Sequence record: OL744216.1
Source: Enterobacter phage vB_ExiM_F4M1E
Length of the DNA stretch: 64,000 bases
Direction: 5' to 3' (one strand)
Part shown: in pieces, positions 8,544 to 58,364 of the stretch
Position numbering within the stretch: the stretch's first letter is position 1
Layout of the letters: each line of letters starts with the position of its first letter
Notes under the pieces: generated by a model
Databases searched by the model: none
What the model was told of the DNA's origin: nothing
The model's input: only the letters and a program-made list of their open reading frames with translations
Translations under genes and position numbers: made by a program

Positions 8544-10100
8544 ATGTTCGACAATATTATGAGTGCCGAGGAGCTTGAACTTGCCAACGCAAATACCGAA
8601 GAGGCAGAGAAACTCCTTGAGGCGGCAAGTCTTCAATTGATGCGCTACAAGCCCTTCTATGGGGTAATGCTGGCATCAATGCCGATCACCCGTGCCACAG
8701 AGACCATCAATACGATGGCTACCAACGGGCGTGACCTGTTTTATTCTCCGGAGTTCGTCGCCGGGATGTGTGACAAGCGCAAGGCGCTGGTAAAACAGCG
8801 TATTGACCAGCAGATCACGGACAAGAAAAAGAACGCAGAGATGAAGTTGATGATCGATGTGTTTTATCGTCGCAAGACTGCCCGTGAGGTGGCCTTGGTG
8901 CTGGAGCACGAATGCGATCACGTCGTTTCTGAGCACATGTACCGTGGGAAAGGATACAACTTCGCGCTGTTCAACATTGCAGCCGACCACCGTATCAATA
9001 CGAACGCTGTTCTCAACCACACGACGAATAATGAGATGGGTACAGCTTGGTTCCCTATGGGTGCCAAAACGGTGTTCGACCCAGACAAAGAATTTGGCTT
9101 CATGAAGTGGGCATACTGTGATTTCCAGTACGCAGATATGTATGCGGAACAGATCTATGAGCTTCTCGTTAAGCAGACCCCTCCCCCTCCGCCGAGCGGT
9201 GGTGGCGGTGGTGCATCGGGAAGCGGAGAGGAAGGTCAAGGTGATTCCGGTGGTCAGGGTAATGGCCCGATGGGTACTGACCAACACCCAAATGCAGACG
9301 GGACCTTCAGTGAGCAGGATGGGGAAGACGATCTGTCCAAAGCAATGGGCACTGACCCGGGGGCTATGAAGCCGCTGACCCAGGATCAAAAGAACTATAA
9401 CGACACGGTAATGCGCCGGGCCATCGAAAACGCTGTTCAGGCAGCGGGCAAGGGAGCGCCAGCAGATGCCCGTAAGTTTGTGGAAGAGGCCGGAAAGCCG
9501 AAGGTTAACTACCTGCGCCTGTTACGTCGGACAATTGAGCGTCTGTTCAAAGACAACGTTTCATACCGCCGTTTAAACCGCCGCAGTTACTCCCTGACGC
9601 GATCTTTACGCCAGGCGGGGTATCTGACCTCTCGACAGACGATCGGCCTTCCTTCGTACACCAAGGCCAAGACAATCCGTGCCCACGTGTTCTTCGACGT
9701 GTCTGGATCGTTCACCGATGATCTTCTGGGGCCGACCAAACGGGAAATCAAGGGGCTGTGCAATCAGTATGAGGACTTTGAGGTCACAATGGCGGCTTGG
9801 TCCACAAAGGTTGGTAACATTTGCACGTACACGAAGAAGAACCTGAAGGAGATTGATAACTATAAGATCAAGACGACTTACGGGACGGATGTGAAGTGCG
9901 TGTTCGAATGTCTTGATGAACTTGACAAAGAGCCGGACCAGATTGTAATCTATACAGATGGTTACTTCTCCGATGTATCTCAGACCAAAAACTGGGCAGA
10001 GAAGTATGGCAAGAAGACTCTGTGGATCATTTTGGGCCGTCATGGGCCGGAATGGACGCCACCGTTTGGAACTGCAATTGACTTTGACAAATACCTGTAA
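8544..10100 (+). CDS. von Willebrand factor A domain protein (CobT-like partner of the MoxR ATPase)
   Basis: MIDAS-like motif FDVSGSF in C-terminal third; Gly/Pro-rich linker; immediately downstream of the AAA+ ATPase. Confidence 0.7.
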   Translation: MFDNIMSAEELELANANTEEAEKLLEAASLQLMRYKPFYGVMLASMPITRATETINTMATNGRDLFYSPEFVAGMCDKRKALVKQRIDQQITDKKKNAEMKLMIDVFYRRKTAREVALVLEHECDHVVSEHMYRGKGYNFALFNIAADHRINTNAVLNHTTNNEMGTAWFPMGAKTVFDPDKEFGFMKWAYCDFQYADMYAEQIYELLVKQTPPPPPSGGGGGASGSGEEGQGDSGGQGNGPMGTDQHPNADGTFSEQDGEDDLSKAMGTDPGAMKPLTQDQKNYNDTVMRRAIENAVQAAGKGAPADARKFVEEAGKPKVNYLRLLRRTIERLFKDNVSYRRLNRRSYSLTRSLRQAGYLTSRQTIGLPSYTKAKTIRAHVFFDVSGSFTDDLLGPTKREIKGLCNQYEDFEVTMAAWSTKVGNICTYTKKNLKEIDNYKIKTTYGTDVKCVFECLDELDKEPDQIVIYTDGYFSDVSQTKNWAEKYGKKTLWIILGRHGPEWTPPFGTAIDFDKYL

Positions 10101-10108
10101 GGAGAATT

Positions 10109-10486
10109 ATGTCACAGTACGGTTATCAATTGGAGTGTGGTCGCCGGGGGGCGACTCTCTCTGTCTTCCGCCTGGATGCATCCGGCGGCGTGGAGTACAC
10201 TTGGAAAGCGATTTTTAACAGCCGGGGCATGGAAGTGGTAAGGTCCACAGGGGAGGGTATTGAAACTCAACTGGCGCACTTTGAGACATTCCTGTACCCA
10301 GATCGTGTTGAAGAGGATGAACTGGCATTCGTGGATCTTCTTTCGATGTCTCCTGTGGAGGAGGATCATGATTTTATCCGGTTGTGTTCCTTCTTGGTTG
10401 CCAAGTGGGCAGCGGGCCACAATGAAGAGATGTTGCACGATGTGATCCGATCCACAATCAAAAGGTGGTCAGAAAAGACAACATGA
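10109..10486 (+). CDS. hypothetical protein (125 aa)
   Basis: RBS AAGGAGAA upstream. Confidence 0.5.
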   Translation: MSQYGYQLECGRRGATLSVFRLDASGGVEYTWKAIFNSRGMEVVRSTGEGIETQLAHFETFLYPDRVEEDELAFVDLLSMSPVEEDHDFIRLCSFLVAKWAAGHNEEMLHDVIRSTIKRWSEKTT

Positions 10487-16099: not shown

Positions 16100-16360
16100 T
16101 TTGTGAGCTAAGGACGGCTCAGATTTCAGATCGGTTTTCGATTTGATATTTTCGCCTGATATTTGCGTAGATATTTGAAATCAGATTTCAATTCGAAATT
16201 CAATTTGAGATTTGATTTGGGATGGGGCTGCTGACCGGAACCCAGATCTGATTTCTTTTTCAGATTTACTGACCAGTGTATCAAACCGTCTGACCTGTGG
16301 TCAATACCTAATGCATCATAAATGTTACATTAAGGGACTTATGCACCACTAATGGTACAT
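16100..16360. repeat. AT-rich region with reiterated GATTT/AGATTTC short repeats
   Basis: gatttc, gatattt, agatttga repeated >15 times; no ORF. Confidence 0.6.
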
Positions 16361-16402
16361 ATATGTTACAATGCTGGAGTTATCCTCTATCAGAAAATTT
16401 GA

Positions 16403-16582
16403 GGGTCTCGATCGACTTTTCACTTTGCCAATCGTATTCTCTGCCCGGCGGGCGGGGCCGGAGTCTCGGTACAAAAACCGGGGTCTCGATCGGTTTTTCG
16501 ATTTCCAGATCGTATTCTCGATACAGGTACAGGTCTCGCGCCGGGGTCTCGATCGAAAATTCATTTTCGAAAACGTATTCTC
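16403..16582. repeat. three tandem bipartite iterons GGGTCTCGATCG(A)-N15/16-A(T/A)CGTATTCTC (approx 16403-16441, 16481-16519, 16544-16582) plus degenerate copies
   Basis: direct repeats about 70 bp apart; fourth copy at 5046-5084; adjacent to AT-rich tract. Confidence 0.65.
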
Positions 16583-16617
16583 AAAATCTATACAGAGGTT
16601 CAAATCGAAATGCAAAT

Positions 16618-16722
16618 CGTTATCATTCTCACCTCTACCGGGTCGGAGTGAGAATCGTTCTCATTTGCAAATGCAACTAATAATCATTCGCATTCAGCTT
16701 GTTGAATGATAATCATTTTCAT
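16618..16722. promoter_or_regulatory. cluster of Fur-box-like AATCATTCTCAT-type sites (best: GAATGATAATCATTTTCAT approx 16704-16722)
   Basis: 14/16 match to Fur core AATGATAATCATTATC; near-palindrome GAGAATCGTTCTCAT. Confidence 0.4.
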
Positions 16723-16998
16723 CTCCAGAATAGCGGGCAGGTCCGGTGATTGTCTCCGGGTCAATTCTCCCCGCTATGTGTATAATATAACCCAAGCCCG
16801 GCCCGGTTGCAAGCGTCTTTACAGTTCTTTACAAAACTATTTTAGGCGAACTACCGGCGATCCACCTTCCGACCTGGCCCCGGTGCCCGGTACGTTAGCC
16901 CCGCCTTTTCGCCGTGGGGTGGCGTCTCCTCTCCTGTATGTGTACATTATGCACCAGGCCCGGCGGGCCGTCAATACAAAAATCAAAATAAATTTTTC

Positions 16999-17057: not shown

Positions 17058-17390
17058 ATGCAACAGACGAAATATTTTATTGAAGGAACAGCCGCCGCCC
17101 ACGCCGGGCAGATCCGCGCCTGCCGCTACAATAAAGAAGAGAACCGCCGCGAATGGTTCGCCGGGTTCGATAGTGTGGATCGTGGTTTCGCCGTGTTTAA
17201 GATCCTCCCTGGCCCCGGCGCTGTTAAGCTGGCTGACCTGGACCCCGTTTATATTGGTGGCGTTAAACAATGCCAGGATCGCGCCGTTACCCTGCAACAG
17301 ACAGACCGCGCCGGGCGCTATGTCATTTATGATATGGCAACGGGCAAGCCGTACCAGGAAAGCACAAAATTAAATTACAAAAATATTTAA
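17058..17390 (+). CDS. hypothetical early-type protein (110 aa)
   Basis: ORF behind P1 with RBS AAAGGAGA. Confidence 0.5.
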   Translation: MQQTKYFIEGTAAAHAGQIRACRYNKEENRREWFAGFDSVDRGFAVFKILPGPGAVKLADLDPVYIGGVKQCQDRAVTLQQTDRAGRYVIYDMATGKPYQESTKLNYKNI

Positions 17391-17399
17391 AATAATGCT

Positions 17400-17428
17400 T
17401 GACGGGGCCGACGATAGGCCCCATAATT
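17400..17428 (+). promoter_or_regulatory. promoter P2 TTGACG-N17-CATAAT, spacer GGGCC..GGCCC dyad
   Basis: consensus hexamers and 17-nt spacer. Confidence 0.6.
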
Positions 17429-17479
17429 CACCACATAGCGACGCACACCGCGCCGCACTAACAAAGAGAGACCGTCATC

Positions 17480-20476: not shown

Positions 20477-20481
20477 TATGA

Positions 20482-20796
20482 ATGATAACTATTCTCACAA
20501 TGCTGGGACTTGCGGCGGCGGCGATTTACTGCGTCGCTACTTATAAAGCGTCTGTATGGCGAAAGGGTCAAAAAATGTACGGCTATTTTGAATATGAGTA
20601 CAAAGGGGAGAAGGGATCAAGCCGGGACTATGGCGCGATGTTAGAGATCGATATGGTTGGCGCGATGAACTACCGCCAGGAGTTGGGCGCGGTGATCACG
20701 TATGAAGTTTACAAGTCATCTGAGGATGAGATCGGGCAGATAATTGATCAACGTTACTATATGGAACAGCAACAAAACAAACGCCGGAGAAAATGA
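20482..20796 (+). CDS. membrane-anchored hypothetical protein (104 aa)
   Basis: N-terminal TM helix ITILTMLGLAAAAIYCVA. Confidence 0.45.
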   Translation: MITILTMLGLAAAAIYCVATYKASVWRKGQKMYGYFEYEYKGEKGSSRDYGAMLEIDMVGAMNYRQELGAVITYEVYKSSEDEIGQIIDQRYYMEQQQNKRRRK

Positions 20797-20933
20797 GAAT
20801 GATTCACACTAACGAGAACCGCCAAAAGGCACGACCCCGCGCCCGCCTGTCATATGCTGAAGCCGAGGACCGCCTACAGCGTGAAAAGAGCAACAAACAA
20901 CAGCGCCGCAAAACGCGCTATAACTGGGAGTAA
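20793..20933 (+). CDS. small basic protein starting MRMI (46 aa)
   Basis: ATGA overlap; ATGAGAATGATT start shared with ORFs 25938 and 27043. Confidence 0.3.
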   Translation: MRMIHTNENRQKARPRARLSYAEAEDRLQREKSNKQQRRKTRYNWE

Positions 20934-23267: not shown

Positions 23268-23296
23268 TTGACGCCCGGCCCGAAAGGGCCGATAAT
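23268..23296 (+). promoter_or_regulatory. promoter P14 TTGACG-N17-GATAAT (GGCCC-GAAA-GGGCC)
   Basis: consensus. Confidence 0.55.
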
Positions 23297-25901: not shown

Positions 25902-25937
25902 CCCGGCCCGGCCCCGCAAGGGGCCAACAGAGGACAA

Positions 25938-26162
25938 ATGAGAATGATTATCAAAAACACTTTGGGCAAAACTGATTTTCTGCGCTCGCTGGAGATCGGC
26001 AAGCCGCAAGCCTGGTATTGTAAAAAGCTGGCGCATGATGAAATGAAAGATTTTACAGCCACGTTAACCCGCGTTAAAATCAGCATTACCCAAAAGAAAG
26101 CGCTTTTAGTGATTGAGGGGCAGATCCCGCAAACCGTGATCATTGTTGAGAGGACCGCATAA
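25938..26162 (+). CDS. hypothetical protein starting MRMI (74 aa)
   Basis: Fur-like ATGAGAATGATTATC spans start codon. Confidence 0.45.
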   Translation: MRMIIKNTLGKTDFLRSLEIGKPQAWYCKKLAHDEMKDFTATLTRVKISITQKKALLVIEGQIPQTVIIVERTA

Positions 26163-26898: not shown

Positions 26899-27307
26899 AT
26901 TAACAGTGTTCACAGGGGTTGACTTGTTCGCCCCTTTTTTGTTATCCTTTTGTCATGCGATGGCACCTGATGCAGGGGGAGACAAACACCGGACCTGCCC
27001 GCTATTCAGGGAGGCGGACCGGACCTGGGCCGCGCCGGGCAAATGAGAATGGTTATCATTCCCAACAAAATCAAATACATACTTTAAAACCGTTGTCAAA
27101 TTTATTTCTTACCCCTGTATAAATGTACATGCCCGCCAAACGCTCTAAAACGCGTTTTAAGCCGTTTTGCCCTTCCCCGGTATCCTACACCATAAAAATA
27201 TAGATCGCCCGAAATCGGACTTTCGCACTTTTTGTCCTTGCAAACGTGAAATTTTTATGTTAGGCCTGAAGGGCTGAAAGCCGGGTGTACGTTGACAAAA
27301 CTTTACA

Positions 27308-27398: not shown

Positions 27399-27638
27399 AT
27401 GAAAGAAATCATGACCTTGGTAAAATCCCGTATGTTACGTGGCGGATTCAACGCATACGCCGACGGCAATATCATTGCCACGGTCGCAAAAGTTACAAAA
27501 AATGATAATGATTCTCAGTTCGCCGGGCAGTATCGGATCTGTTTTACCCGTGGAAAGTTGCAAGGTAAAACGGCATACGCACCAGATTTTCAAGAGCTTA
27601 ATGATCGTATTTGCGCCGTTTTAGATTTTGCAAAATAA
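27399..27638 (+). CDS. hypothetical protein (79 aa)
   Basis: RBS AAGAGGGGA. Confidence 0.5.
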   Translation: MKEIMTLVKSRMLRGGFNAYADGNIIATVAKVTKNDNDSQFAGQYRICFTRGKLQGKTAYAPDFQELNDRICAVLDFAK

Positions 27639-27641
27639 ATG

Positions 27642-27670
27642 TTGACGCTGGGGCCGAAAGGCCCCATAAT
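27642..27670 (+). promoter_or_regulatory. promoter P21 TTGACG-N17-CATAAT (GGGGCC-GAAA-GGCCCC)
   Basis: consensus. Confidence 0.6.
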
Positions 27671-28310: not shown

Positions 28311-28599
28311 CCAAACGTGGCAAGCCTGGAGGCCCGGCCCGGTATCGGTCCGACTCCCCCAGTCAATCCCCTTATCACTTCCATTTGTGGAAATCAACAC
28401 TTAATTTTATTCACTTTAAAGCGCATAATTGAATAAACGAGGAGCTAACCCACTAACCAGGGTTGAGAGTAGCGGCCCGCATAGGGCCTTACAGCGCGTT
28501 TTAGCCCCTATTGACTTCTATCTGCAAACGTGTATCAAGCCGGATCGGTGAATCATCCATTTTCTTTACATAACTTGACACTATTTATTCATTTATCTG

Positions 28600-29225
28600 C
28601 ATAATGCTAGAATGATTCTCATTTACTATCAATAACTTAACTTTTTATTGACTTCTGACAAAACACGGTTTTACGTTCCCACGGATCAAGGGAGGGCGCG
28701 CCGTAGGCGCGACCAATAGAAAACAGGTAACGGATCACCCCCTTTGCTAACTCGCAAAGGATTGTGCTCACGTTCCCACGGTCAAGGGATGACCGCTATC
28801 ACCTGTTTTCTATTGGTCATTACGTAGTAATAAAACCGCTATTGTCAAGGGCTTTTTAGTGCCTACAGGCACAAATACGAATTATTCTCATCTGCATAAA
28901 GATTGGTTTTATCTGCATAAGTACGTAAACAGGCGGACCCGTACAGCGTAGCGGGGGCCGCATAGGCCCTACCGGGCAAGGGCCTTTATTGCTCACAAAA
29001 CAGCCGAAAGCGTAGTATTTGCCTGGCAAAATTCGCTCTTCGTGTCAAGCGAAAAATAATTTTTTTTTCTTTTTGCGTAAACGATAATGATTCTCATCCG
29101 AGAACCATTCTCAAAGGGCTAATGCGAATCATTCTCATTATCATGCCACAAGGTGAGTGAGACTCATTCTCATCCAGGCCAGTGCTGGCGGGCCTCTCCA
29201 CGTGTTGGGAATGATTATCATTCAC
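28600..29225. promoter_or_regulatory. cluster of at least 7 AATCATTCTCAT / ATGAGAATGATT (Fur-box-like) sites, including palindrome GAATGATTATCATTC (approx 29209-29223)
   Basis: approx sites 28609, 28879, 29083, 29100, 29126, 29159, 29208; resembles Fur consensus GATAATGATAATCATTATC. Confidence 0.45.
28700..28820. repeat. 16-bp perfect inverted repeat CCAATAGAAAACAGGT / ACCTGTTTTCTATTGG enclosing an internal hairpin (CCTTTGC-TAACTC-GCAAAGG)
   Basis: read directly from sequence; flanked by duplicated CGTTCCCACGG(A/T)TCAAGGGA. Confidence 0.55.
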
Positions 29226-29809
29226 GTCAGTGCGTATAAGGTGTATTATGTTAAATGGGGAAATGTTGGGGGAGGCACACCACGGCCCGGCTGTCAATAA
29301 GAGAAGTGTAAAGATGGGCAAGATGGTAGACATTTTGTGACTTTGATCGCGTAAAGTTAGGGGCTACCGATCTGGATTCAAGATTGAGAGGGAGAGGCTA
29401 AGTGATTGATTATTAAGGATATTTGGGAAAAATAACAGGTGCCCCTCCCCACCCCTGTTCGCCATGCCTGGCAGCTATATCCACACACTGAGATATTTTT
29501 CTGGTTTCTGGGCAAGAAGGGCCACCCCTGATCGCGTTCTAAAAATTTTGGCGGGAGGGTATTTTGACATAAAAAGAGGGCACAGCGCCTTACAGGTGAG
29601 CCTCTTCAGGCGTCCCTTGATATTTGGGCAATGTGGGAATACAGACGGGTACGTCTCTGTGGGAACAGGTATACCCGGCGGGAGAGGGCCTCCCGGACGG
29701 GGTATGGCGCTCGCAGAGTTATCAACAGGTCTGCCTCTTTAGGCAGTGGGTACAAGACAGGTTAGGCTCTTCAGGTCTACCAGTGTGGGAAACAAAATTG
29801 TGGAGGGAG

Positions 29810-54731: not shown

Positions 54732-55829
54732 TTACAGGTCCATATTGAAGTCGGACGCACTCATTGAAGAATCAACCTGGCCGGACAGATACTGACCGTT
54801 CTCGGTTTCCTGTGGTGTTACTTGCACGTTCCCGGTATTCAGGTGACTGTTGATCCAAGGAATTGGGTTCTTGGTCGGCTTACCGATCAGTTCACCCAGA
54901 CCAACCGCTCGCATACGCTGGTCGGTGATGTAGTCGATGTAACCGTCCAGCATACCTTTGTTCAGGCCGATCATCGAACCGTCTTTGAACAGGAAGCTGC
55001 CCCAGTCTTTCTCCTGCACCGATGCGTCGATAAAGCCCTGTCGTGCCTCTTCGTAGCAATCTTCTGCCACACGTGCAAACAGGTCACCTTCGTTACCGTT
55101 CTGCATTTCTTTCAGCATATACTGAGTTCCGGACAAATGCAAGGCTTCATCACGAGCAATCAGTTCAATAATGTTGGTGTTACCCAGCATTACGCCGCGC
55201 TCACCGAAAGCGAAGGAGCAGGCGAAGCTCACGTAGAAACGGATCGCTTCCAGTGCATTGATGTTGTGCAGGCACAGATACAGCGCACGAGCGTGTTTGT
55301 ACGGATCAACCGGAAGGTTCAGGGCCTTACGGCAGTTCAGTTCGTACAGGTCATCATACATCTTCGTCACCGCCTCGGCGCGGGCGATAATCTCCGGCGA
55401 CTTCATGATATCGTCAAAGACGATCGAGGGGTCTGCCAGGATGTTGCGGATGATATGGGTGTATGAGCGGGAGTGGATTGTCTCACTGAACGCCCAAGTT
55501 TCAACCCATGTCTCCAGGGTGGTGTCGGACACGATCGGCAGAAGGACTGCGTTCGGCCCACGGCCCTGTACAGAATCCAGAAGGATCTGGTACTTCAGGT
55601 TACTGATGAAGATGTGCTTCTCGTGATCCGGCAGGTTCATGTAGTCGATTCGGTCACGAGTGACGTTCACCTCTTCAGGACGCCAGAAGAACGCCAGTTG
55701 CTTCTCAATCAGCTTCTCGAACTTGGCATGTTTCTGCTGGTCATAACGAGAAACGTTCGGTGTCTCGCCGAGGAACATCGGCTGAGTCAGGAAGTCGAAT
55801 TTGTTCTGGTTGAAAGTGCTGTAAGACAT
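54732..55829 (-). CDS. nrdB: ribonucleotide reductase class Ia small subunit
   Basis: ferritin-like di-iron motifs, C-terminal tail; AGGAGAAAACA RBS before ATG 55829. Confidence 0.85.
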
Positions 55830-55899
55830 TGTTTTCTCCTTTTCTCTAAACTTGTGGTCCATTATACAGATGCCGGACCAAGTGTCAACACCCTAAGAC

Positions 55900-56105: not shown

Positions 56106-58364
56106 TTACAGTTTGCAAGCACCGCCGCCGCAACCATCATCATCCTGATCGTTGCCGTCTTTGGTCTCTTGGTAGTACAGAGTCTTCAGTCCATGCTTAT
56201 ACGCCCACATGATGTCTCGCAGCACGACCTTAATCGGCAGCTTACCGCCCGGGAAATCCCAAGGCTTGTAGAAGGTGTTCGCCGACGCAGCTTGGTCGAT
56301 GAACTTCTGCATGATTGCCACGAGGCCCAAGTAAGGGAGCGGAGAATCCATGTCCCACTTGTACTCGTAGACCACGCTCGGGTCTTCTACCCCCGGCACC
56401 AACACTGGTAGCATCCCAGCGGAGGATTTCTTGAAGGAAATCGCATCACGAGGAGGCTCGAACCCGTTGGTGGAGTTGGTGATTTGGCTGGAGGTCTCAC
56501 AAGGCATCATCGTGGACAGCGTAGAGTTACGCAGGCCATGAAGCGCGATGTCGAGGCGCAGCTTTTCCCAATCCATCTTCAGTTCCGCAGTGTGGAGGGC
56601 ATCCACTTCCTTCTTGTAACGGTCGATCGGCAGAATGCCTTGAGAATACGTGGTCTCGTGGAAGAGATCACATTTACCCAGTTCTTTCGCCAGGTCAACC
56701 GACGCTTCCAGCAGGTAATACTGGAATGCTTCAGCCAGTTCGTGAACAGCGTTTGCTGCACGAGGATCGCTGTACTTCAGCCCGCGCTTCGCCAGGTAGT
56801 ACGCCAAGTTGGTCCAGCCGATACCCAGTGTACGGCGCAGTTTAGTCTTCTCCGCTGCCAGTACCGGATAGTTCTGGTAGTCCAGCAGACGATCCAGAGC
56901 ACGAACCAGTGTACGGACAGGCTCACGCATGTCTTCCAGCTTCTCAATCTTACCAAGGTTAATGGCAGACAGAGTACACAGGGCCACTTCACCCGGATCT
57001 TTCGGGTCGTTAATGTCATTGATCGGGTGCGTCGGCAGCGCGATCTCCATGCACAGGTTGGACTGTTTCACCGGGGCCTGTTTAGGGTCAAACGGGCTGT
57101 TGGTGTTGCAGTGGTCAACGTGCTGAACATAAATACGACCAGTTTGTGAACGCTCCTGCCCAAAGACAGAGAATGCGTCCGCCGCAGAGATAGACTTCTT
57201 CGCCACGGAAGGATCTGCTTCCAGTTCCTCGTAAAGCTGTTGGAATTTCTCCTGGTCAGAGAAGAAATACTCATACAGCTTACCACCTGCCACGTTAGGA
57301 TGGAACAACGTGATGTTTTTGCCATGCTGAAGGCGAGTGTACAGCAGCTTGTTGATCTGGAGGCCATAGTCCACATGGCGAGCACGAGTGCTCTCGGTGC
57401 CACGGTTGTTCTTCAGAACGATCAGGCTCTCAAAATCCCAGTGCCACATCGGGTAGAAATAGTTAGCCGATGCCTTACGGACGCCGCCCTGAGAGGTCCA
57501 CCCAAGAGACTCTTGGTACATACGGACAATCGGGACGGTGCCTGCGTGTTTAACCTCGCCACCACGAATGGCTGCATCCTGACCACGAATCATACCGAAG
57601 TTCAGGCCGATCCCTGCACGTTGCGCCGCATACTTACCTTGTGCGGTGTTGGCATTAAAGATCTGGTTGATATCGTCACCAGACTCGATCAGTACGCAAG
57701 AGCTAAACTGACGGGTCGGGGTACGAACACCTGCCATGATCGGTGTCGGTAAGGACACCTTCATCAGGGACACGTTCTCGTACAGATCAACAATTCGATC
57801 CAGACGGGTCTTTTTATCTTCCTTAGACAAGAGGCCCATAGCGATCAACATCAGCGCCATCTGAGGAGATTCGTAAATCTCCCCGGTAACACGGTTCTTG
57901 ACCAGATACTTGTCTTCGTACTGGCGCATGGCGGCATAGGTGTAATCGAAGTCGCGGTCGTGAACGATCTTATCATTCAGGAAAGCAATCTCATCACGGG
58001 TGTAATCGTCCAGCAGATGACGATCGTACTTGCCGTTGCCCACGTTAAGATAAATCTGATGGAACAGGTCGAACGGCTGGAAATCACCATATGCCTCTTT
58101 ACGGATCTTGAACAGCAGCAGTCGTGCAGCAGCGTACTGATAATCCGGGTTCTGAACACTAATCAGGTCAGATGCGGCCTTGATCAGTGTTTCGTGAATG
58201 GCCTTTGTTGTTACGCCATCGAACATTTGGATCTGGGCTTTCATAAGGATCTCTGATGCACACACATCGAGACCTTCACATGCCCACTCTACCACACGGT
58301 TAGCCTTCTCGGCATCGAACTTCTCTGTCGAACCGGAATTTTTTACAACATTAATGCTGGTCAA
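56106..58364 (-). CDS. nrdA: ribonucleotide reductase class Ia large subunit (TTG start)
   Basis: N-terminal ATP-cone, catalytic Cys region, C-terminal CGGGACKL tail; AAGGAG RBS 6 nt before TTG. Confidence 0.9.
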   Translation of the reverse strand: MTSINVVKNSGSTEKFDAEKANRVVEWACEGLDVCASEILMKAQIQMFDGVTTKAIHETLIKAASDLISVQNPDYQYAAARLLLFKIRKEAYGDFQPFDLFHQIYLNVGNGKYDRHLLDDYTRDEIAFLNDKIVHDRDFDYTYAAMRQYEDKYLVKNRVTGEIYESPQMALMLIAMGLLSKEDKKTRLDRIVDLYENVSLMKVSLPTPIMAGVRTPTRQFSSCVLIESGDDINQIFNANTAQGKYAAQRAGIGLNFGMIRGQDAAIRGGEVKHAGTVPIVRMYQESLGWTSQGGVRKASANYFYPMWHWDFESLIVLKNNRGTESTRARHVDYGLQINKLLYTRLQHGKNITLFHPNVAGGKLYEYFFSDQEKFQQLYEELEADPSVAKKSISAADAFSVFGQERSQTGRIYVQHVDHCNTNSPFDPKQAPVKQSNLCMEIALPTHPINDINDPKDPGEVALCTLSAINLGKIEKLEDMREPVRTLVRALDRLLDYQNYPVLAAEKTKLRRTLGIGWTNLAYYLAKRGLKYSDPRAANAVHELAEAFQYYLLEASVDLAKELGKCDLFHETTYSQGILPIDRYKKEVDALHTAELKMDWEKLRLDIALHGLRNSTLSTMMPCETSSQITNSTNGFEPPRDAISFKKSSAGMLPVLVPGVEDPSVVYEYKWDMDSPLPYLGLVAIMQKFIDQAASANTFYKPWDFPGGKLPIKVVLRDIMWAYKHGLKTLYYQETKDGNDQDDDGCGGGACKL

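Follow-up and report, generated by a model that had tools for sequence, protein, structure and literature searches.

A 64,000-nucleotide stretch of the genome of Enterobacter phage vB_ExiM_F4M1E (OL744216.1; hereafter the window) contains sixteen copies of a symmetric DNA element that resembles the operators of the ferric uptake regulator (Fur). All sixteen fall within 12.6 kb (16.6-29.2 kb): four form an array upstream of the early genes (array A), seven form a second array in a non-coding gap (array B) and five are dispersed. The window is best matched by genomes of the genus Certrevirus (Vequintavirinae, rV5-like virulent myophages). Klebsiella phage KaOmega is the nearest record (92% identity) and CR9, CR8, CR3, P7_Pc and phiTE come next; a search of a plasmid collection with the window returned zero matches.

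The plus-strand block at 17-28 kb carries many sigma-70-type promoters in which a GC-rich hairpin stands between TTGAC and ATAAT. Since the TTGAC...ATAAT form has been published as the putative early promoter of Certreviruses (PMC7344957), we consider this block to be the early region. The spacers of the early promoters between 17.4 and 27.7 kb (e.g., 17389-17437, 23268-23296, 27642-27670) hold a G+C-rich inverted repeat, TTGAC-GGGGCC...GGCCCC-ATAAT, which is not mentioned with the published consensus AAAA(N3)TGTTGAC(N19)TATAAT. Array B lies in a 1.4-kb gap (28.3-29.7 kb) between convergent gene blocks, with small plus-strand genes on the left, running to 28275 and ending in a terminator, and minus-strand genes on the right. 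Small open reading frames (ORFs) in this gap are interrupted by in-frame stops in CR8, CR9, P7_Pc and phiTE, and substitutions are spread 22/18/18 across codon positions, without an excess at the third position; the gap is therefore truly non-coding. Genes have been annotated there in KaOmega (gp181-gp183; window positions 28637-28771, 28856-29029, 29094-29333 and 29464-29742) and others in CR3 and P7_Pc. Judging from in-frame stops and frame-breaking indels in relatives and from the lack of codon-position bias, these annotated ORFs are probably not genes.

Repeat unit and arrangement of the sites

The first-pass annotation of this DNA had flagged a 12-mer, AATCATTCTCAT, and described a dense non-coding cluster of at least seven copies in about 650 bp. 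The cluster is present and far above chance: with at most one mismatch on either strand, the 12-mer has 12 matches in the window against 0.49 expected, and 0 of 100 shuffles reached 12. The number of copies depends on the stringency. Within 28561-29260, five copies have at most one mismatch (28611, 28880, 29086, 29127 and 29162); the claimed seven distinct sites are reached only with two mismatches, which adds 29103 and 29210, and just one copy, at 29127, is exact. Minus-strand matches at 29081, 29122 and 29205 add no further sites, since they come from reading these sites on the opposite strand. Three palindromic strings quoted from the cluster were located at 29082-29096, 29208-29222 and 29100-29113, and the further copies placed near 16.62-16.72 kb at 16615, 16653, 16682 and 16711; the word iterons is unsupported for the latter.

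The 12-mer is just part of the real unit, a symmetric 15-mer within a dyad of 15-19 bp, TGA(G/T)AAT-N-ATT(C/A)TCA (logo from 16 aligned sites). The dyad symmetry of a Fur box (7-1-7 or 6-1-6) is evident in this logo, TGAKAAT-N-ATTMTCA. Allowing two mismatches, the dyad occurs 15 times in the window and 0.55 times in block shuffles (shuffle maximum 2). Array A packs four boxes in 115 bp, with spacings of 38, 29 and 29 bp, and array B packs seven in 620 bp at irregular spacings that include 17, 24, 35 and 48 bp (Table 1).

Table 1. Fur-type boxes and associated elements in the window. Scores are in bits and refer to the matrix built from E. coli sites, unless the matrix built from the phage sites (phage matrix) is named.
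Feature	Position	Strand	15-mer start	Score	Description
Array A, four boxes	16606-16726		16611, 16649, 16678, 16707	13.7-19.4	In 960-bp non-coding gap upstream of early genes
Promoter-like P_A	16702-16757	+			TTGAAT 16702-16707; 18-nt spacer occupied by box 16707; CAGAAT 16726-16731; then conserved element AGCGGGCAGGTCCGGTGATTGTCTCC
Dispersed box	20478-20498		20483	16.2	Overlaps ATG of 104-aa gene 20482-20796
Dispersed box	20789-20813		20794	17.4	Overlaps ribosome-binding site and start (ATGAGAATGATT) of 46-aa ORF; same box at annotated KaOmega gp156 start
Dispersed box	25934-25958		25939	17.5	Overlaps start of 74-aa gene 25938-26162; conserved in P7_Pc, CR9, CR3, CR8
Dispersed box	27039-27063		27044	19.5	In 500-bp intergenic stretch; 17-mer ATGAGAATGGTTATCAT; adjoins inverted copy (26978-27010) of array A flanking element
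Dispersed box	27498-27522		27503	20.4 (window maximum)	Inside ORF 27399-27638
Promoter-like P_B1	28575-28613	+			TTGACA 28575-28580 and CATAAT 28600-28605 (19-nt spacer), or extended -10 TGcTAGAAT 28605-28613
Box B1	28606-28626		28607	17.2; phage matrix 18.3	Dyad CTAGAATGATTCTCA at 28607-28621; covers -10/+1 of P_B1
Structured RNA-like element	28665-28820	+			About 155 nt, downstream of P_B1; 18-bp closing stem GACCAATAGAAAACAGGT / ACCTGTTTTCTATTGGTC; two near-identical hairpins ACGTTCCCACGG(A)TCAAGGGA
Box B2	28875-28893		28876	13.4; phage matrix 19.0	TACGAATTATTCTCA; adjoins TATCTGCATAA repeat; equivalent box in SSBI34
Box B3	29081-29097		29082	16.6	CGATAATGATTCTCA; adjoins A/T tract 29049-29075; kept in 7 aligned phages
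Box B4	29098-29114		29099	<12; phage matrix 17.0	CGAGAACCATTCTCA; weakest of array B
Box B5	29118-29142		29123	18.1, 18.6	TGCGAATCATTCTCA and overlapping register GCGAATCATTCTCATTATC; holds the sole exact 12-mer of array B
Box B6	29153-29173		29158	13.2; phage matrix 21.3	TGAGACTCATTCTCA
Box B7	29205-29225		29206	19.3	Perfect 7-1-7 dyad GAATGAT-T-ATCATTC (29208-29222); 15/19 to classical consensus
Promoter-like P_B2	29221-29264	+			TTCACG-17-TATTAT at 29221-29249 (consensus scan); within conserved block GTGCGTATAAGGTGTATTATGTTAAATGG

Annotated or predicted start codons (ATGA(G/T)AA...) coincide exactly with the beginning of three of the dispersed boxes (at 20482, 20793 and 25938). The proteins that start at 20793 and 25938 begin M-R-M-I, and the one that starts at 20482 begins M-I-T-I. 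The second ATG may be the genuine start, given that the PHROG profiles begin at residue 4 and that the first ATG is replaced by ACG in CR8.

Other repeats surround array A. Upstream of it are four copies of TCAGATTTCA-type units (16119-16267) and three copies of a 55-nt unit, GGGGTCTCGATCG...CGTATTCTC, spaced 63-78 bp apart (16400-16595); units similar to both families are found in the rV5-like phage DrSchubert. A 33-nt inverted repeat, CCAGAATAGCGGGCAGGTCCGGTGATTGTCTCC (16725-16757 and 26978-27010, 94% complementary), brackets 10.2 kb of the early cluster. Each of its copies adjoins a Fur-type box, and the element is conserved in Vequintavirus and Phapecoctavirus.

Comparison with Fur operators and conservation among phages

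The relation of the sites to Fur operators was assessed with reciprocal matrices. One matrix, derived from just the 16 phage sites, was run across 99 kb of E. coli MG1655 DNA that includes ten promoter regions known to belong to the Fur regulon. The ten best matches were exactly these regions (fecI, ryhB, fhuA, entC, exbB, cirA, fepA-fes, fecA, entS and fepB), which make up 2.19% of the scanned DNA; that is, a model of the candidate sites recovers known Fur promoters. In the reverse direction, a matrix built from 11 E. coli sites only assigned 12 bits or more to 23 19-mers of the window, versus 1.85 in shuffles; all 23 fall within 16.6-29.2 kb, and phage T7, which has a similar G+C content, gave zero matches. 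The scan with a Fur matrix that had been suggested as a check was thus positive, and the scores are operator-like: phage sites reach 13-20 bits, compared with 5-20 (median 14.4) for the E. coli sites in a leave-one-out evaluation. Relative to the 19-bp consensus GATAATGATAATCATTATC, the phage sites have 4-5 mismatches, as do entC and fecI, and so match at the level of known operators. Matches to the 16-mer core, earlier put at 12-14 of 16 positions, range from 11 to 14.

The 17-mer of the fecI operator, ATGAGAATGGTTATCAT (10279-10295 of the record), is identical to positions 27043-27059 of the phage and the flanks are unrelated, which points to convergence on a strong operator and not to transfer of a host fragment. 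On the gene strand, the ryhB operator reads ATGAGAATGATTATTAT and includes, as its core, the reverse complement of the flagged 12-mer. At the level of sequence, the phage sites are indistinguishable from strong natural Fur operators.

The boxes are also conserved. All array B boxes are kept in seven Certreviruses. In Mydovirus AV124, Henunavirus pEp_SNUABM_01 and SSBI34, most of the sequence around them has diverged, yet boxes are still present in the homologous gap. The block of box B1 is invariant in 7 aligned Certreviruses (it reads GAGAATGATTATCATT in KaOmega, CR9 and phiTE), as are AACCATTCTCA in box B4 and GGGAATGATTATCATT in box B7 in the 7 aligned phages. The dispersed box at 27039-27063 is conserved in six relatives. 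Array A is conserved in KaOmega, there with a perfect dyad, ATGAGAATCATTCTCAT. In the complete KaOmega genome (149.5 kb), 17 of 18 matches are located in the 13.4-kb early region (9% of the genome), which is bracketed by the homologues of arrays A and B.

Beyond these relatives, a BLAST search with array A found matches in 408 phage records. Its homologues have two boxes in DrSchubert and four, with 29-bp spacing, in Phapecoctavirus KKP 3954. In the T5-like phage Sugarland, three boxes are found at the inner end of the terminal repeat, beside DnaA boxes. The motif, whose absence from related phages would have spoken against the first-pass annotation, is therefore present in seven Certreviruses, Mydovirus, Henunavirus, SSBI34, Vequintavirus, Phapecoctavirus and T5-like phages, and arrays are carried by three unrelated phage groups with Enterobacterales hosts (rV5-like, phAPEC8-like and T5-like). 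T5 itself (AY587007) has five Fur-type boxes at 9470-9633, with 12.6-20.1 bits in the E. coli-only matrix. They coincide with annotated copies 1-4 of direct repeat C and with palindromes E, G and I of the injection-stop region, and the shear point of first-step transfer, estimated at 9618, falls inside the last of the five. A detailed analysis of the T5 injection-stop region never mentions Fur (10.1101/866236).

The reciprocal matrices and the conservation in related phages support the suggestion that host Fur is the factor recruited to these sites. On balance, we find it fairly probable that the arrays are Fur boxes, that is, putative operators for the ferric uptake regulator of the host.

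Promoter-like elements, structured RNA and possible roles of the arrays

Three boxes overlap conserved promoter-like elements: box 16707 lies in the spacer of P_A, box 28607 on the -10/+1 region of P_B1 and box 29206 at the -35 of P_B2. In alignments, P_A and the element downstream of it are kept in KaOmega, Vequintavirus DrSchubert and Phapecoctavirus KKP 3954. Around P_B1, 95 nt are invariant across the 7 aligned phages. The dyad of B7 adjoins the -35 of P_B2, overlapping it by two bases. The 39-nt block GTGCGTATAAGGTGTATTATGTTAAATGG (29226-29264) is 90-97% identical in Mydovirus AV124, Klebsiella KP12 and an Erwinia Henunavirus and is the sole sequence of the gap that aligns there; it could correspond to a promoter or to the 5' end of a conserved transcript. 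RNA structure downstream of 29249 has weak support (consensus fold -15 kcal/mol).

Downstream of P_B1, RNAalifold predicts 58 pairs in the structured element, and compensatory changes are seen at 8 of these. We place the structured RNA on the plus strand because several of its G-U pairs would become mismatched on the opposite one. A search of the 64-kb window against Rfam gave nothing at gathering thresholds; within the gap there were just sub-threshold matches on the upstream terminator, and no Rfam family matches the structured element. In the distant Salmonella phage SSBI34, the order of box, about 90 nt and structured element is kept; the spacer has diverged and the element is 85% identical. 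An exact-pattern scan of IMG/VR for the element returned four close relatives and no added diversity.

Some further observations concern the same gap. A second short repeat, (T/C)ATCTGCATAA, occurs at 28594, 28889 and 28910 (and more weakly at 28519), where it abuts or lies near boxes B1 and B2. Its excess over chance is only weak: allowing one mismatch, 3 copies are seen where 0.91 would be expected, and 3 were reached in 5 of 100 shuffles. The repeat is nonetheless conserved in relatives. The phage phiTE is known for its ToxI mimic; a pseudo-ToxI was dropped as a candidate, no ToxI-like repeat being found in the gap of the window or of six relatives. The records of PBES 02 (KT353109), SSBI34 and KP12 end inside or near the array B gap, with PBES 02 opened within the structured element. 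Since Certreviruses are reported to be circularly permuted, we read these ends as arbitrary assembly breaks, and they are probably artefacts.

The sites match real Fur operators in sequence, are restricted to the early region, are conserved, and are in part positioned on promoter-like elements. Given sixteen such sites, dispersed and in two conserved arrays, the phage probably senses or disturbs host iron status. When the cell is replete with iron, host Fur-Fe2+ dimers would bind the dyads on incoming and replicating phage DNA, and Fur on the boxes that overlap P_A (16702-16731), P_B1 (28575-28613) and P_B2 (29221-29249) would occlude RNA polymerase. Transcripts from these three elements, including the structured RNA at 28665-28820, would then be repressed by iron and released under iron scarcity. 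Release could also come about by titration of Fur as phage genome copies become many. A side effect late in infection could be that host promoters lose Fur to the roughly 16 strong boxes on each genome copy. In this model Fur binding, promoter activity and iron-dependent expression are all predicted from the DNA sequence.

A number of points weigh against iron-dependent control by host Fur. The 11 sites of the E. coli-only matrix were chosen by their match to the classical consensus inside known Fur-regulated regions. Among the 32 phage half-sites, 21 are GAGAAT and 9 the canonical GATAAT; GAGAAT-type halves are also present in the fecI, ryhB and exbB operators, which are among the strongest natural ones. 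Promoter overlap concerns only three of the 16 boxes, the other 13 having no evident promoter, and the promoters are consensus-level predictions. P_B1 was missed by the promoter scan (16-18 nt spacers) and requires either a 19-nt spacer or an extended -10. Four boxes are on gene starts or within coding sequence (three starts, one inside a gene), and a single promoter could be repressed with fewer boxes than array B contains.

Because the number and density of the boxes exceed the needs of promoter control, a decoy function is a serious companion hypothesis, although as an explanation in its own right we judge it unlikely. Here the arrays would titrate host Fur as phage DNA replicates, a naturally occurring counterpart of the Fur titration assay; the iron-uptake regulon of the host would be derepressed together with RyhB, and phage enzymes, ribonucleotide reductase among them, would thereby be supplied with iron. 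This is compatible with promoter control and differs from it just in the selected effect. High-scoring boxes are indeed dense in the non-coding DNA of both arrays, most are off promoter-like elements, their scores equal those of the strongest natural operators, and arrays are kept in several large virulent phage families. The phage also has homologues of nrdA and nrdB, the iron-dependent subunits of class I ribonucleotide reductase (window ORFs 54732-55862 and 56106-58364, matching KaOmega gp245 and gp247). A decoy, however, would require neither that boxes be placed exactly in the spacer or on the -10 of conserved promoter-like elements nor that sites be confined to the early region, and the array of T5 sits on DNA that enters as a single copy.

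It is less probable still that the ligand is an early, non-Fur DNA-binding protein of the phage, for example one active in early shut-off, with the likeness to Fur boxes arising from mimicry or coincidence. Sites that are confined to and bracket the early region are what would be expected of a timing switch, the symmetric G/C preference at position 3 of the hexamer is unlike the canonical Fur consensus, and ten proteins flanking the arrays have no function assigned by Pfam or PHROGs. Against such a protein, the reciprocal matrices cannot separate the motif from real Fur operators, up to the identity of a 17-mer. No candidate regulator was found among the ten flanking proteins, in a non-exhaustive search that covered a minority of the early ORFs. 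A phage-encoded Fur was dropped as a candidate: a tblastn search with E. coli Fur found no homologue in the window nor in any Vequintavirinae record, and the other matches in the phage collection were to unrelated phages or to contigs of host contamination (a 99% match to one such contig, from Salmonella, validated the query). The same arrays recur in T5-like, rV5-like and phAPEC8-like phages despite their differing early gene sets, which makes a shared host factor the simpler explanation. Given that no Fur-family gene was found in the window or in Vequintavirinae records and that arrays are common to unrelated phage families sharing hosts, a regulator encoded by the phage is less parsimonious than host Fur.

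We consider it quite improbable that the arrays are primarily architectural or replication elements, either iterons of an origin or a signal for DNA entry or insulation like the T5 injection stop, in which Fur or another factor would form a nucleoprotein complex and iron regulation would be beside the point. The direct repeats of array A with their regular 29-bp spacing, the A/T tract (29049-29075) adjoining array B, the large conserved untranslated gaps with several other repeat families and the inverted 33-nt element flanking the early cluster would all suit this idea, as would the homology of the units to T5 direct repeat C with shear point 9618 within one of them. Yet the spacing of array B is irregular, array B sits between convergent gene blocks, and circularly permuted headful packagers such as Certreviruses have no fixed entering end. 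The surroundings hold neither a DnaA-box cluster nor an initiator-like gene (the ten flanking proteins have no known domain), and the arrays do not have the make-up of origin iterons; DnaA boxes and GC skew were uninformative as origin markers.

Finally, a role at the RNA level, in which array B would be transcribed on the plus strand and its AAUCAUUCUCAU units would act as antisense seeds against the AUGAGAAUGAUU start regions at 20793, 25938 and 27043, is very improbable: array copies do share one orientation and gene-cluster copies the opposite one, three boxes coincide with start codons and complementarities extend over 18-19 of 21 nt, but complementarity follows automatically from a near-palindromic DNA motif of 15-19 bp, two of the five "targets" are not gene starts (an ORF of 14 codons starts at 27043, and 27503 falls within a gene that is read in another frame), Fur operators of E. 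coli share the motif without having any such role in RNA, and no seed/target covariation was seen in relatives. The idea had been prompted by the boxes on start codons and was rejected once the motif proved to be a dyad.

If Fur does bind, these phages would be sensing or manipulating cellular iron status. Infected tissue and plant lesions, where such phages should act, are poor in iron, so that phage development in vivo could differ from that in rich medium. For the new structured phage RNA, binding would supply a defined regulatory input, and for direct repeat C of T5, unexplained for decades, a candidate identity that can be tested with a fur mutant.

Comparison with known systems

Fur boxes are textbook elements, and single boxes are known to precede cargo genes of prophages. 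There seems to be no earlier description of conserved multi-site arrays of them in non-coding DNA of an obligately lytic phage; we found no report, in the searchable literature, of Fur boxes in Vequintavirinae or T5-like phages. More tentatively, the arrays could be an unrecognized device common to Vequintavirinae, Stephanstirmvirinae and T5-like Demerecviridae, in which host Fur would serve beyond ordinary promoter control as a decoy target, as a nucleoprotein boundary or as part of the T5 injection stop.

The closest counterparts are the chromosomal Fur operators (ryhB, fecI, fhuA, entC/fepB, exbB and cirA), which have the same 19-bp or 7-1-7 dyad and the same range of scores, up to an identical 17-mer in fecI and an identical core 12-mer in ryhB. 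At ryhB, the box covers the -10/+1 region or the spacer of a sigma-70 promoter, as at the phage promoter-like elements, and the target is a non-coding RNA, just as one of the putative phage targets is non-coding RNA-like. The phage sites differ in that they are on a virulent phage, are far denser (16 in 12.6 kb, in arrays of 4 and 7, compared with 7 stray matches outside Fur-regulated regions in the 99 kb of E. coli DNA), are biased to GAGAAT half-sites and in several cases are on gene starts instead of promoters; binding to them is predicted.

Temperate phages offer a second comparison. The stx1 promoter of Stx1 phages has a Fur box on prophage cargo. Likewise a phage-borne operator for host Fur, which couples expression to the iron regulon of the host, is the fur box upstream of sitABCD in lambdoid prophages, the one related match in the literature (PMC6969025). 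Such cargo boxes are single and precede lysogenic-conversion genes expressed from the prophage, whereas the boxes described here form multi-site non-coding arrays in an obligately lytic phage, flank early genes and have no iron-related cargo gene adjoining them.

T5 direct repeat C shares with array A a homologous repeat unit (by BLAST) and a position in a large conserved untranslated gap by early or pre-early genes. T5 has fixed ends and two-step injection, with its array in the terminal repeat beside DnaA boxes; Certreviruses are circularly permuted and their arrays are without a DnaA-box cluster.

In virulent cyanophages, PhoB boxes upstream of pstS and phoA, as well as NtcA sites, tie phage transcription to the nutrient status of the host. 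The regulator and the nutrient are others there, and the boxes precede auxiliary metabolic genes. In vB_ExiM_F4M1E, by comparison, the boxes stand in front of elements that resemble non-coding RNA, and their arrays bracket the early region.

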